Virus record (IMG/VR): IMGVR_UViG_3300019378_000009
Span: 45,429 to 109,428 of that record
DNA from: a virus
Lineage: Duplodnaviria; Caudoviricetes
Length of the DNA stretch: 64,000 nucleotides
Reading direction: 5' to 3' (one strand)
In this document: piece by piece, positions 36,430 through 53,936 of the stretch
Position numbering within the stretch: position 1 is the stretch's first letter
How the letters are laid out: each line of letters begins with the position of its first letter
Program-made: the position numbers and the translations under genes
Notes under the pieces: generated by a model
Database searches by the model: none
What the model was told of the DNA's origin: nothing
The model's input: only the letters and a program-made list of their open reading frames with translations

Positions 36430-36534
36430 GAGAGGGTAGCTCAAGGGTAGAGCGGCATCCTGCTAAGATGCGGCAGACGAGGTCAGTGCACGGACTAGTC
36501 CACTGTATGGGTTCGAATCCCATCCCTTTCACCA
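36430..36534 (+). tRNA. tRNA-Ser(GCT)-like RNA with oversized variable region
   Basis: Acceptor GAGAGGG/CCCTTTC, D arm GCTC/GAGC, anticodon arm GCATC-CTGCTAA-GATGC, T arm ATGGG-TTCGAAT-CCCAT, encoded ACCA. Confidence 0.8.
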
Positions 36535-45005: not shown

Positions 45006-45493
45006 ATCGTCCTTTTTCTTTTATCAAAATACAAAAGATAATCCATGGCAGAAATCGTGCCCGGGCTAACATGCGCCCGGGCCGCAAATTTGAACAAATC
45101 AAGTCTATTTTATTAACAAATTGTAAACTTTTCAATCAGAAGCAACACCTCCCTTCCACAGCTGTACACCGGATATCCCATTACCGTTACATGCCTCCCG
45201 AGTAATAAACCACCGGTAATAAGCAGCTATAAGCAGCAGCAGCACCACCTGTCCTTTGCCCATAAGCAGCAGCACAAATTTGACATAATTATTCAAATCC
45301 ACGAAAAAGCAGCTACAAGAAGCTGCAAAAATTTGAATTTTTATACGATTTATGATATAATATTTATAGAAAAAGAGGAAAAACAAGAAAAAATTACAAG
45401 CATTTCTGGAATATTTACGCATCGCCGCAGTAGGTGATAAAATAATGAATATGTAGATCTGGATATAATTATTACGAAAGGGGAAGCAAGAGA

Positions 45494-49373: not shown

Positions 49374-50072
49374 GTGGAAAAGATAGAAAGCAAATGGCTG
49401 TTCCCAGTGCGAATGGAGAACAGCAAAAGCATTGAATGGGTAGAAGATATTGTAGAGGCTTTTAGCAAGTTTAAGGCTCCGATTACGCAGGCAACTTGGG
49501 AACATTGTTTGCGGCGAGGGGTAGTAGGTGCAGGCACCCCCGAACACAACAAGTTGCTTAGGGAGTGGTGGAACACTGGTTGGCAGGAAATGCCTATCTT
49601 GCCCGCAAAGTGGGGAGGAACACCAGTAATGAAGATTACCCAACAAGTACTGGGACAAACTCTGGAATTGATATATCCAACAATAGAAAAGACTTGTGAG
49701 GCATTAGGGTGCGGCTTCCGTGCATTTAGAGATATTGCGCAAGGAATACACCCCAACCGCTACTTTGACGGAGAAGTGCGCCCTCTTAGACAGATTGCGG
49801 CAAAAGAGCTTCCCTATCCGCCTTGGACACTTTTCGCCGCAGACGATACTATCATAGGATATTTCCAAACCAAACAAGAAATGGCGGATTATTTGGGTAT
49901 TCACCATAAAATAATTGATGTGGCGCATAATAACAATTGGAACAAATTGGCAAGCGGCAAATGGTTTTGGTGCGAGAGGTGGGGATTTATGCCAATTAGC
50001 CCAGATGATGAACCTTTGGGTAGTAATTGGCGTGAAAAATATAGTCCAGATTACTCTCCTGGGGAGATTTGA
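49374..50072 (+). CDS. Hypothetical protein with NUMOD1/HTH-like DNA-binding segments
   Basis: IYPTIEKTCEALG and YFQTKQEMADYLGI; GTG start after AGGAG. Confidence 0.5.
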   Translation: MEKIESKWLFPVRMENSKSIEWVEDIVEAFSKFKAPITQATWEHCLRRGVVGAGTPEHNKLLREWWNTGWQEMPILPAKWGGTPVMKITQQVLGQTLELIYPTIEKTCEALGCGFRAFRDIAQGIHPNRYFDGEVRPLRQIAAKELPYPPWTLFAADDTIIGYFQTKQEMADYLGIHHKIIDVAHNNNWNKLASGKWFWCERWGFMPISPDDEPLGSNWREKYSPDYSPGEI

Positions 50073-50223
50073 CTTTTAGTCCAAAATAGGATATAATATA
50101 TATAGAAGTTAGAAAGCAATACTATATATTGTTTCTCTTGCTTAATAGTAGTGCGCGCTACTTTATATATAATAAACGAGAATGGGAATACCTGTTCTCG
50201 TTTTTTGTTTTTGGAGGTAAAAT

Positions 50224-50676
50224 ATGGATAGTAATTATTTTATGGGTGCACCCAATACCTATCGCGGATATGCTCCATCCTACTTATCTGCGATGAACGG
50301 TATGCCCTCAAACAGTAACCCAATGGGAGCAAATAACACTAACATAGTATGGGCTATGGGCATGGAAAGTGCCAAAGCATATCCCGTACTACCCGGCAAG
50401 ACAGTATTGTTAATGGATAGCGAAGGTCCTCATTTCTTCATCAAAACAGTGGACAACAACGGTTATGCCACTATGAAGAGCTATTCTTTCCAAGAAGACA
50501 TTCCCGTCGTGCCAAATCAGTCTGCGGCAAATTATGTTACTAAAGAACAGTTGGATGAAGTTGTTGCTAAGCTAATGACACATATTAAAACAGTATCAAC
50601 AGCAGAAGAAACAACCAAAACAACTATGGCGGAAACAAAGGCTGCGGAAGAACCCAAAGTAAAAAATCTATTGTGA
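50224..50676 (+). CDS. Five-gene cassette, gene 1 (hypothetical)
   Basis: Asn/Met-rich N-terminus, then IVW..G.ESAKAYPV.PG.TVLLMDSE...FFIKTVD..G and YVTKEQ; GGAGG RBS. Confidence 0.85.
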   Translation: MDSNYFMGAPNTYRGYAPSYLSAMNGMPSNSNPMGANNTNIVWAMGMESAKAYPVLPGKTVLLMDSEGPHFFIKTVDNNGYATMKSYSFQEDIPVVPNQSAANYVTKEQLDEVVAKLMTHIKTVSTAEETTKTTMAETKAAEEPKVKNLL

Positions 50677-50686
50677 GGAAAAAAGA

Positions 50687-51187
50687 ATGTATAATAACAA
50701 TGCAAACAATGTAAACCCTCTCTATACTCTTCTTGGCTTAACCGGTGGTGGACAAGGTCAAGGTCAAGGTGGCAGCCAACAAGGTGGTCAGCAAGGAGGA
50801 CAACAGGGAGGACAGCAACAAGGTGGTGGACAACAGGGTGGCGACCCTATGGAAACCCTTATGCAATTAATTGCGGCAATGGCTAGTGGTCAAAATGCTA
50901 TGAATGCATTAACAAGCATCATTCCCGCACTTGGTCAAAGAGTTCAAAATCACTCTCCCCAAGAACTCGAAAAATTTACTCGTAACGAGTACAATCGTCA
51001 AGGTATTGATATAAATGCGGCAATGAAACAATTGCAGGAAATGATGAATGCCGGTGGCTATAATGTAAACAATGGCGGCTACAATGGCGGATATAATACC
51101 AATAACGGTGGATATAACGCAGGAAATGGCGGCGGCTATAACGCAAACAATAATCAAAATAACACAAATACTAATAACAACTTTTAA
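50687..51187 (+). CDS. Five-gene cassette, gene 2 (Gly/Gln/Asn-rich low-complexity protein)
   Basis: QGG repeats and NGGYN repeats flanking a helical core. Confidence 0.8.
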   Translation: MYNNNANNVNPLYTLLGLTGGGQGQGQGGSQQGGQQGGQQGGQQQGGGQQGGDPMETLMQLIAAMASGQNAMNALTSIIPALGQRVQNHSPQELEKFTRNEYNRQGIDINAAMKQLQEMMNAGGYNVNNGGYNGGYNTNNGGYNAGNGGGYNANNNQNNTNTNNNF

Positions 51188-51260
51188 GAGAGAATGAGCT
51201 AAGTCGACGGCTTATTCTCTTTTTATTTTTTAAAAATTATGTTTAAGGAGGTAATTAAAC

Positions 51261-53050
51261 ATGGAAACAGCAATGCTTAGTCCCGCTGATGCTATGCTTT
51301 TGGGACAAAATAATGGATTTGGAAACAACGGTGCTTGGATTTGGGTGCTCTTGTTAGCGTTCCTTTGGGGCGGTAACGGCTACGGATTCGGTAACAACCG
51401 TGGAGGAAATGGTATGTATAGTGACTTTATAGACGGTAGCGCGACAAGAGCAGCCGTAAATAGCGGATTCCAATACAATCAGCTTGATAATGGTATTCGT
51501 GGTATCCAGAACGGATTGTGTGATGGTTTCTATGCAGTCAATAGCAGCTTAAAAGACGGCTTCTATGGAACGCAGGGCGCTATTAAAGATTGCTGCTGCA
51601 ACTTGAGAAGCGAACTTGCAGACTGCTGCTTAAATTGTGTGGCAGCCTAAACAAGCAATTGTTTAGTTAAAAATTCGGTGAATTGCTGGGAAGCTAAAAG
51701 ATAGACAAAATTTGACTTCTTGTCGATATTAGAGTATAATATAGATAGAAAAACATATGGAGGTCAATTTTATGTTTTATGTGTATGAATGGTATAATAT
51801 AGATACTAAAGAAATTTTTTATGTTGGCAAAGGCTGCAATCGTCGTTATAAAATTGTAGCAGGAAGAAATGAAGATTTTTTAAACTATCACGCCAATCAC
51901 AATGTAGATGTAAGGATAGTTAAAGAATTTGAAAAAGAAGAAGATGCTTTTAAATACGAAGAAGAATTAATACAACTATATTGGAAACAAGGACAACCTC
52001 TGTGCAATCGTAAAGAGGGTGGAAATGGCGGCGTTGCTGGAATTTGGACAGACGAAATGCGAGAAAAAATGTCCAAAGAAAACCCAATGAAAGCAGAAGA
52101 ACAAAGGTTAAGAATGTCTATTCACAATCCTATGAAAGAACCTGAGGTGGCTCGAAAAGTAGGAATTGCGAATTCAGAACCAGTCATATTAAACGGTGTT
52201 TATTATGAAAGTACGGGTGAAGCAGCACGAAGCTTAAATAAACATATAAAAACCATAAGAACTTGGTGCAAAAGAGGTTATGACACTGATGGTAATCCTT
52301 GTCGTTATGCAAATAAAGAACAAGCATCCTATACTTTCAAGCGCACTTGTTCTAAACCAGTTTTAGTAGATGGTCAATGGTTTCCATCTGTTAAAGCTGC
52401 GGCGAATTTTATAGGAGTTAATGATAGTTCTCCATTAGTAAAAGCATTAAAAGCCAACAAAACATACTACGGACACATAGTATCTTATGCTAATCAGCAG
52501 CCAAGCGAGGAGAATTCCTAAATAGTATCCTCGAAGGTTCAACGACTAATGGGTGAGGAAGGATACCAATAATCCCAACACGAGTGCCGAACTCCAAATG
52601 ATATTTGGATGAAGATATAGTCTGAACTATATGGAAACATATAGAAGTATGAGATAAAGAACTCATACGATAACACTGGTTCGTGGCACAACGAATCGCA
52701 ATATTGATGCGCTTAGATACGATATGAGCAAGGGCTTCTGCGACGTGGTTACAGCTAACAACTTAAACACTCGCGACATCCTTGAGTCTCAGAATGCTAA
52801 CACTCAACGCATACTTGACTACATCAACTGCAACGAGAAACAGGCATTGAGAGATCGCATCCAGACTTTGGAAACCAGCGGTATTATACAAGCTCAGACA
52901 AAGAACCTTGTAGATACTCTTAGACCTTGCCCAATCCCTGCATATATCACATGCAGTCCTTTCCAATCATACACAGTTAATCCTTATGGTGGCGGTGTAG
53001 GATATGGATACGGTGCAGGCTATGGTTACGGATGCGGCTGCGGCATCTAA
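51261..53050 (+). CDS. Five-gene cassette, gene 3, spliced: join(51261..51630,52686..53050), 244-aa Gly/Asn/Cys-rich protein
   Basis: Removing the intron restores frame and gives ...ELADCCCTTNRNIDALRYD...; hydrophobic WIWVLLLAFLWGG segment, two CCC motifs, LRPCPIPAY and YGCGCG end. Confidence 0.88.
51631..52685 (+). mobile_element. Group I self-splicing intron
   Basis: P (AATTGCTGGGAA), Q (AATCAGCAG), R (GTTCAACGACTA), S (AAGATATAGTCT); P1 GCTGCT/GGCAGC with U.G at the 5' splice site; P10 TTGTGT/GCACAA; terminal G at 52685. Confidence 0.93.
51772..52521 (+). CDS. Intron-encoded GIY-YIG homing endonuclease
   Basis: YVY...FYVGKG..RR, EEELI, N...GG catalytic domain; NUMOD-like repeats; own promoter (TTGACT-17-TATAAT at 51712-51740). 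Confidence 0.88.
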   Translation: MFYVYEWYNIDTKEIFYVGKGCNRRYKIVAGRNEDFLNYHANHNVDVRIVKEFEKEEDAFKYEEELIQLYWKQGQPLCNRKEGGNGGVAGIWTDEMREKMSKENPMKAEEQRLRMSIHNPMKEPEVARKVGIANSEPVILNGVYYESTGEAARSLNKHIKTIRTWCKRGYDTDGNPCRYANKEQASYTFKRTCSKPVLVDGQWFPSVKAAANFIGVNDSSPLVKALKANKTYYGHIVSYANQQPSEENS

Positions 53051-53108
53051 TAATTAAATAAATGTCAGAGGGAGTGCTTGTTACTCCCTCTTTGATTTGG
53101 AGGTTAAA

Positions 53109-53456
53109 ATGGCGAAATGTAGAATTTTACGAGCTTCTTTAGCAGTAGATGGAGCAAACATAACTTTAACGCTTCCTAATACAGAAGAAGCTCTAACAAA
53201 TAGAGATGTTTTAAGGTTTTATATTACAGCAAATATTCCGGAAGATAATCCTCTAGGAACGGTGTCTGTAATTGTGAATGGCACAACCTTTCCTTTAACA
53301 ACTATTCTGGGCAATTCGGTGCGTACAGAACAGCTAAGAAGCAGATTTGTATATACAATACAGTTGGGAGCAGAAACACCTAACTTTGTAATGAAAACTT
53401 GCTTACCTGAAACTTCTTTTGTTTATCCTGCATATGCAGCACCTGCGGTGGTATAA
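53109..53456 (+). CDS. Five-gene cassette, gene 4 (small beta-rich protein)
   Basis: GGAGG RBS; alternating hydrophobic beta pattern. Confidence 0.75.
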   Translation: MAKCRILRASLAVDGANITLTLPNTEEALTNRDVLRFYITANIPEDNPLGTVSVIVNGTTFPLTTILGNSVRTEQLRSRFVYTIQLGAETPNFVMKTCLPETSFVYPAYAAPAVV

Positions 53457-53457
53457 G

Positions 53458-53904
53458 ATGCATAAGGCTAACATAGATCATATAATTAAACAAGGCACCT
53501 TTCAACAAATGGAAGAGATGCGGGAAGTTTTGGTTGAGGCAATTAGCAAACTAAAAGAATTTTCTCCAACTTCATATAGTGAAGTGGAGTTTGATTTACA
53601 TAAGATAGCTCACAACGGCAAGCTGGGAGAAGACTTGGCAAAGAAGTGGGTGTCTTGCATGCAGAACAAAGACGGTACTACTGGAGAACATTGGACGTGG
53701 GATCAAGTTCTACAAGTACAAAAAGATAAAAAGATTGGTACGGACCCCGGAGAGGTTTATGCAGTATTGAATATGATGTATAGCGATTATTACAATCCGA
53801 AGTTCGATACCAATGTATATGTGGAAATGACAAAAGACTGGATTAATGATCCAGATGTACAAGATTATAAAACCTTGAAATATTACTACTATGTAGTACA
53901 TTAA
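53458..53904 (+). CDS. Five-gene cassette, gene 5 (helical protein)
   Basis: WV..MQNKDGTTGEHWT, LNMMYSDY, WINDPD and K..KYY motifs. Confidence 0.8.
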   Translation: MHKANIDHIIKQGTFQQMEEMREVLVEAISKLKEFSPTSYSEVEFDLHKIAHNGKLGEDLAKKWVSCMQNKDGTTGEHWTWDQVLQVQKDKKIGTDPGEVYAVLNMMYSDYYNPKFDTNVYVEMTKDWINDPDVQDYKTLKYYYYVVH

Positions 53905-53908
53905 CACT

Positions 53909-53936
53909 AGCAGCGGGACTTGTTCTCGCTGCTTTA
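53909..53936 (+). terminator. Terminator closing the five-gene cassette
   Basis: AGCAGCGGGA-loop-TCTCGCTGCT-TT. Confidence 0.7.

Follow-up and report, generated by a model that had tools for sequence, protein, structure and literature searches.

The interrupted phrog_16490 gene

We studied a window of 64,000 nucleotides (nt), the final 64 kb (positions 45,429 to 109,428) of the 109,428-bp virus record IMGVR_UViG_3300019378_000009 (Caudoviricetes), which has direct terminal repeats; DNA of the window is also present in faecal metagenomes. At positions 51261 to 53050 of the window, to which all coordinates below refer unless another sequence is named, a gene of the phrog_16490 family is interrupted by a group I intron, and the intron in turn carries a gene for a GIY-YIG homing endonuclease. 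The host gene and its immediate surroundings comprise the following features.

51186..51223, + strand: terminator-like hairpin closing the upstream Gly/Asn-rich gene, directly before the host gene
51245..51251, + strand: Shine-Dalgarno sequence AAGGAGG of the host gene
51261..51630, + strand: exon 1 of the phrog_16490 gene, 123 codons and the T of the junction Cys codon
51631..52685, + strand: group I intron, 1055 nt
52686..53050, + strand: exon 2, beginning with the GC that completes the junction Cys codon, then 119 sense codons and a stop; its first 6 nt form P10
53067..53091, + strand: terminator-like hairpin 3' of exon 2

In the unspliced form, the open reading frame (ORF) of exon 1, starting at ATG 51261, runs past codon 123 into six junk codons and ends with a stop at 51650. 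Joining 51630 to 52686 yields TGC (T+GC) and an open frame of 244 amino acids (aa) with DCCC-TTNRNID at the junction, the product reading ...RSELADCCCTTNRNIDALRY... / ...ADCCCTTNRNIDALRY... in this region. The predicted ligated RNA is ...GACTGCTGCT|GCACAACG..., or ...GACTGCTGCT|GCACAACGAATC... with a longer 3' side.

Both exons match phrog_16490 and are contiguous on its profile, exon 1 corresponding to profile positions 18-139 (E-value 2e-16) and exon 2, to positions 142-281 (E-value 3e-12). The spliced protein is aligned over residues 1-244 with uninterrupted homologues at approximately 40% identity, the best E-values being 5e-44 (tblastn) and 9e-50 (blastp). Across the junction intron-less genes encode CCC-(E/D/T)TNRNID, e.g., NCCCDTNRNID and QCCCETNRNID; examples of uninterrupted proteins are a 234-aa protein on a human-gut phage scaffold (...QNCCCDTNRNIDAVRY...) and a 258-aa protein of Dulem virus 35 (...QDCCCQTQRAIDGVNY...). 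The three Cys of CCC, R130, D133 and 23 other positions are invariant in an alignment of 73 sequences, with T128, N129, N131 and I132 nearly invariant. The DNA consensus over 47 distinct intron-less contexts is TGcTGCTGc GAnACnAAncGnAAcATnGA, and the target is therefore conserved at the nucleotide level too.

Gene callers see this locus differently: without splicing, as separate small genes of 129 aa and 108 aa that flank an endonuclease gene standing on its own. The same view is taken in the GenBank record of Clostridium phage CPQ4 (MZ401006), where a homologous intron interrupts the same gene: exon 1 and the endonuclease are entered as separate hypothetical proteins, and exon 2 and the intron are unannotated. 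We give this view next to no credence, as the two pieces are halves of one family abutting at its most conserved motif, a covarying ribozyme core lies exactly between them, and exon 2 is open in frame from 52688 to 53050, that is, also upstream of Met 52724, with homology to the family beginning at 52688. The locus is thus best read as one gene in two exons.

Ribozyme anatomy and covariation

The core elements and peripheral helices of the intron, all read directly from the sequence, are given below.

51625..51630, + strand: P1 5' strand GCUGCU; 5' splice site after U51630 (U.G pair)
51635..51646, + strand: internal guide sequence, consisting of the P10 strand UUGUGU (51635-51640) and the P1 strand GGCAGC (51641-51646)
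51647..51666, + strand: P2 hairpin, 8 bp, with a GCAA (GNRA) loop
51674..51679, + strand: P3 5' strand UUCGGU, partner 52586-52591
51683..51689, + strand: P4 5' strand (element P) UUGCUGG, partner 52494-52500
52494..52500, + strand: P4 3' strand (element Q) UCAGCAG
52501..52537, + strand: P6/P6a (CC..GG; CGAGGA/UCCUCG)
52537..52548, + strand: element R, including the P7 5' strand GACUA (52544-52548)
52550..52577, + strand: P7.1 extension, characteristic of IA-type introns, with UGGG/CCCA enclosing an internal region
52586..52591, + strand: P3 3' strand GCCGAA
52593..52609, + strand: P8 hairpin UCCAAAU/AUUUGGA
52611..52622, + strand: element S, including the P7 3' strand UAGUC (52618-52622)
52627..52644, + strand: P9 hairpin, 7 bp, with a GAAA loop
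52647..52668, + strand: P9.1 hairpin GUAUGAG/CUCAUAC
52685, + strand: terminal (omega) G, the last intron base, followed by the 3' splice site
52686-52691 with 51635-51640, + strand: P10, 6 bp, GCACAA (exon 2)/UUGUGU

The Rfam model RF00028 matches 52410-52644 with 48.8 bits (E-values: local search, 4.7e-11; entire window, 2.2e-09; genome search, 9e-13), the alignment spanning Q, P6, R, the P3 3' strand, P8, S and P9. No other group I intron was found by the RF00028 search of the 109-kb genome. In the minimum free energy fold of the ORF-deleted intron, P1, P2, P4, P5, P6, P7.1, P8, P9 and P9.1 are recovered; P3 and P7 never appear in it together because they form a pseudoknot. Two other kinds of insertion were considered and rejected: an intein, since there is no protein-level insert and stop codons occur within the intron, and a group II intron, given the absence of a reverse transcriptase ORF and of a matching Rfam hit.

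Covariation was analyzed in 14 distinct related introns from IMG/VR and CPQ4. P3 is paired in all fourteen, with three positions changing on both sides (variants UUCGGU/GCCGAA, UCGGGU/GCCCGA, UUGGGU/GCCCAA and CUAGGU/GCCUAG), and P3, P4 and P7 are paired in 12-14 of the 14 sequences. Each of six positions of P6a shows two to four standard pair types, most positions of P9.1 show several, and the sequence of P7.1 changes completely between introns with complementarity kept; P7 and most of P4 are invariant. A covarying P7.1 and a P9.1 are present; helices P7.1/P7.2 between P7 and the P3 3' strand and extra P9.x helices characterize subgroup IA2, to which the intron may belong. Moreover, in six relatives the P1 guide tracks synonymous TGC/TGT codons of the exon, with the pairs GCUGCU/GGCAGC, GUUGCU/GGCAAC, GUUGCU/GGUAAC and GCUGUU/GACAGC.

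All coordinates and sequence claims of the first-pass annotation, made from the letters of the window, agree with these observations: the intron at 51631-52685, the exon bounds, the P/Q/R/S cores, the U.G pair of P1, and P10. Likewise, the T+GC join into TGC, giving DCCCTTNRNID in a protein of 244 aa, is confirmed by the joined open frame, and the intron-less homologues that it had proposed as a check do exist and continue across the junction. The GIY-YIG ORF that it had placed between P and Q with its own promoter is indeed found there, in the P5 loop.

A second CCC run, TGC TGC TGC (51591-51599; ...IKDCCCNL...), lies 11 codons 5' of the junction CCC. It is not conserved in the phrog_16490 family and contains GCUGCU (51592-51597), the same partner for the guide; splicing after T51597 would keep the frame with 11 codons (33 nt) lost, which makes the run a candidate for a cryptic or alternative 5' splice site. 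Splicing might be conditional, depending on a phage or host factor, on competition with translation or on the alternative site, and might modulate the amount or the isoform of the protein. Such a scheme would gain from the in-frame P1 partner 33 nt upstream and from P1-loop inserts of ~70-80 nt that some relatives tolerate, but it derives from sequence only, both P10 and the shortness of the P1 loop speak for the annotated site, and the upstream run lacks conservation; we consider it quite improbable compared to regular splicing after U51630.

The intron-encoded endonuclease and the distribution of the intron

The endonuclease gene and its predicted expression signals lie inside the intron.

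51712..51740, + strand: promoter-like TTGACT-17-TATAAT inside the P5 loop, for the endonuclease; 11/12 consensus match
51759..51763, + strand: Shine-Dalgarno sequence GGAGG of the endonuclease gene, with an 8-nt spacer to ATG 51772
51772..52521, + strand: GIY-YIG/NUMOD1 homing endonuclease gene, 249 aa; the last ~13 codons overlap the P5 and P4 3' strands and P6

Depending on the start (51772 or 51757), the ORF between P (51683-51689) and Q (52494-52500) encodes 249 or 254 aa. Given the spacing of the Shine-Dalgarno sequence and the fact that relatives of the endonuclease start at the equivalent Met, the start is most likely ATG 51772 rather than ATG 51757. The insertion point of the ORF is assigned to the P5 loop because ORF-less relatives have a plain P4-P5-P4' hairpin at this place. 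The same promoter hexamers with the same spacing are found in the CPQ4 copy, whose endonuclease is 53% identical.

The product matches phrog_314, annotated as homing endonuclease (E-value 2e-16), and Pfam NUMOD1 (PF07453) above the cut-off (24.6 vs. 22.8). An AlphaFold2 (AF2) model built from 43 homologues has a mean predicted local distance difference test score (pLDDT) of 86. The first 82 residues of the model superpose on the I-TevI catalytic domain (1LN0) with Z 9.3 and a root-mean-square deviation of 2.0 Å over 78 residues, and the N-terminal domain also superposes on the GIY-YIG enzyme PD-T4-3 (Z 9.3) and the GIY-YIG domains of UvrC (Z 7.4-7.6), while later parts of the model resemble DNA-binding modules of I-TevI and I-HmuI (Z ~6). 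This match came from the fold comparison, sequence searches of the endonuclease against PDB being empty or spurious. Y5, Y17, R25 and E63 do not vary among 43 family members, and N79, the candidate catalytic Asn, is invariant in an alignment of the four closest sequences; from their motif positions we infer that these five residues are equivalents of the I-TevI catalytic residues.

The C-terminus ..YANQQPSEENS (52481-52521) is encoded by the ribozyme strands P5', Q and P6, and all relatives conserve NQQPS, a sign that the 3' end of the endonuclease gene is constrained by protein and ribozyme at once.

A query of IMG/VR with the single endonuclease sequence gave no match, and the loci were retrieved with an alignment query. 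The family comprises 582 clusters at E-value ≤1e-5, and among the best 80 IMG/VR loci 41 are flanked by exons of the host gene. The intron is also present in IMG/VR contigs L088, L090/L093, L095, L113 and L114. Reading of the junctions separates two intron lineages, whose insertion points are 3 nt apart in the CCC run. In the first, which includes the window intron, the guide is GGCAGC-like and the exon ends with ...TGY TGY T|GY (15 distinct contexts); in the second, the guide is GGCACU-like and the exon reads ...TGY T|GY TGY (14 distinct contexts), and it is some introns of the second lineage that carry the P1-loop inserts mentioned above. CPQ4 has the architecture of the first lineage but the earlier of the two registers, with the junction one codon earlier in the Cys run and a predicted exon join ...AGCTGTT|GTTGCGAAACT....

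Six further IMG/VR contigs (L146-L151) contain the endonuclease and exons of the same gene with a core that does not match the sequence anchors; the one tested, L146, is recognized by Rfam as a group I intron with 38 bits. Possibly they are a third sequence variant occupying this site. RF00028 also matches representatives of it and of the second lineage.

The 3' core of the intron (R, P8, S, P9) shares 79-86% nucleotide identity with introns of Staphylococcus Twort/K-like phages and of C. perfringens phages phiCP13O, phiCP34O and CPQ4. Unlike in the window phage, the related intron of phiCP13O splits the tape-measure gene; its core is situated between two coding sequences (CDS) annotated as "minor tail protein" (L005, 1583-2651). 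CPQ4 (MZ401006, 15426-17951 and 30444-32520) apparently has two further interrupted genes: its tape-measure gene consists of two CDS with a 426-nt gap between them, and its large terminase gene is in two parts on either side of an annotated homing endonuclease.

A strain ~96-98% identical to the window phage, from another metagenome, retains the intron across both splice sites. Out of six changed exon codons in this strain, five are synonymous and the sixth is D121E, and among its intron changes C51656>U leaves P2 with a GNRA loop. In a related strain (run X11), the endonuclease region 52133-52432 is ~8% diverged (24 changes per 300 nt) vs. ~1% in the flanking exons, and 9 of the 22 changed codons listed over the whole ORF are non-synonymous. 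By this comparison, the intron ORF appears to be evolving much faster than the host gene.

One may ask whether the intron is real but decaying, with splicing poor or lost, the host gene in effect a pseudogene and the endonuclease a remnant. Relatives do decay: the endonuclease of L088 (2268-3255 in the oriented contig) is frameshifted and split over two frames, and L095 (10340-10630) has lost the ORF, with only the promoter –35 element and the last codons remaining, compared to L113, which keeps a 314-aa endonuclease and has the same exon sequence as L095 in the stretches read. These are classic stages of endonuclease decay, and an Rfam score just under the gathering cut-off would fit a similar fate of the window copy. 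Still, in the latter all core helices and the terminal G are intact, both exons are open at full length, the endonuclease keeps the invariant residues at catalytic positions, and exon changes in the diverged strain are mostly synonymous, making decay very improbable. The window intron looks well-formed and is probably active.

Proposed splicing and homing, and the host cassette

Considering these data, we assign a probability of about 0.93 to the following interpretation: a mobile phage group I intron of the IA type splits a phrog_16490 gene, its splicing yields the 244-aa protein, and its P5 loop holds an I-TevI-like endonuclease. Several observations weigh against it. The RF00028 score is 1.2 bits below the gathering cut-off of 50, and only the 3' half of the intron is covered; the 5' half is missed because the ~790-nt insert in the P5 loop (promoter, leader and endonuclease ORF) separates the halves, and the sub-threshold score fits this separation. 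Pfam GIY-YIG (PF01541) is below its gathering score (18.6 vs. 22.6). Among the sequencing runs listed for the locus, none is an RNA run. Finally, a near-identical intron-less allele of the window phage was not found in four partially matching DNA runs, which are represented by fragmentary low-depth contigs, one of them with the ~96-98% identical intron-bearing variant; since this allele was not encountered, homing is deduced from the intron distribution only.

The intron splits the third codon of the invariant CCC motif behind its first base. The proposed sequence of events is as follows. In the pre-mRNA, the guide GGCAGC would pair with the exon end GCUGCU, forming P1 with its U.G pair, and free guanosine would attack after U51630; P10 (UUGUGU/GCACAA) would then align exon 2, and ligation of the exons after G52685 would produce the mRNA for the 244-aa protein. 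The endonuclease gene would be transcribed separately, from its own sigma-A-type promoter, and translated from 51772 with its own Shine-Dalgarno sequence. The enzyme is predicted to cut intron-less alleles in co-infecting phages near TGYTGYT|GY-GAR-ACN-AAY-CGN-AAY, a stretch conserved at the nucleotide level, and repair of the cut copies would copy the intron in (homing). By analogy with I-TevI, the cut would be staggered and lie ~20-25 nt away from the insertion site. The anatomy, covariation, exon continuity, endonuclease fold and occupancy of this site in many phages are shown by the data; catalysis of splicing, cleavage specificity and homing are inferred.

This organization has much in common with the T4 td intron and its endonuclease I-TevI. 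In both cases self-splicing-type cores have peripheral helices of the P7.1/P9.1 type, the endonuclease ORF is looped out of the core and has its own expression signals, a GIY-YIG catalytic domain is followed by a linker and small DNA-binding modules, and the target coincides with the best-conserved codons of the host gene. In the td intron the endonuclease ORF is located in P6a. The window ORF, in contrast, is in the P5 loop and shares its 3' end with the ribozyme core (Q/P6). Further differences are that the window endonuclease has no sequence-level match to any PDB entry and that the host gene encodes an uncharacterised accessory membrane protein, not an enzyme of nucleotide metabolism. Recognition sites of homing endonucleases often encode functionally critical residues (PMC3984707). 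The literature search yielded no report of the window intron or of introns in the host gene; the kind of element is known, and the host gene is without an earlier report as a target in the literature searched.

The phrog_16490 family contains more than 7,600 clusters and has neither a Pfam domain nor names. The host protein has a Gly-flanked transmembrane (TM) helix, long helices and a Cys/Gly tail; the AF2 model of the family (73 sequences) is poor, resolving the TM helix and long helices only (pLDDT 49, predicted template modelling score 0.17), and no hint of a function came from Pfam, NCBIfam, PADLOC, the ESM Atlas or a profile search of the PDB. Its neighbours are conserved and form a cassette with it: genes for a phrog_21718 protein and a small helical protein come before the host gene, and the gene for a weak BclA_C-like protein and one more gene, the fifth, come after it. 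Where in the genome this cassette lies differs between CPQ4, Dulem virus 35 and the window phage. The host protein is the membrane-anchored Cys-rich core of this widespread accessory cassette. Of the statements of the first-pass annotation about the gene, that on its conservation holds, given the three invariant Cys, and functional importance of CCC is a fair inference from the same 73-sequence alignment; its value to the phage is a conjecture, the gene lying in a self-contained cassette whose place differs between phages.

In the window the host gene is the third of a five-gene unit (50069-53936). The promoter at the cassette head (50069-50097) is TTGACT-17-TATAAT, the same form as that of the endonuclease, and just downstream of it there is a terminator-like hairpin.

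50174-50203: terminator-like hairpin just downstream of the cassette-head promoter

In 28 out of 82 loci, the fifth gene (53419/53458-53904) is again present, ~1.2 kb 3' of the family gene. Outside the cassette, a tRNA-like gene at 36430-36531 has an Rfam score of 56 bits and no ARAGORN call; its anticodon loop is CUGCUAA (GCU, Ser-type), with an insert of unusual length (~32 nt) at the position of the variable arm.

A broader and rather doubtful suggestion, which we put forward only tentatively, is that the nine bases encoding CCC are a long-standing homing hot spot in a very abundant, probably dispensable gut-phage cassette gene, occupied by two diverged intron/endonuclease lineages, whose persistence would stem from the prevalence of the target among co-infecting phages and its conservation at the nucleotide level and not from essentiality of the gene; the intron might also adjust how much of the cassette protein, or which isoform, is made, possibly via the in-frame alternative 5' site at 51597.

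For annotation, the locus changes from two "hypothetical" fragments and an orphan ORF to one 244-aa gene and a mobile element, and the same correction applies to the GenBank record of CPQ4, a culturable Clostridium perfringens phage. Together with its host, CPQ4 is a laboratory system for splicing, homing and the role of the cassette. The two lineages located 3 nt apart form a compact natural case for shifts in insertion sites of GIY-YIG endonucleases and introns, and the intron flags CCC-xTNRNID as the segment under the strongest constraint in a family that numbers thousands of proteins.

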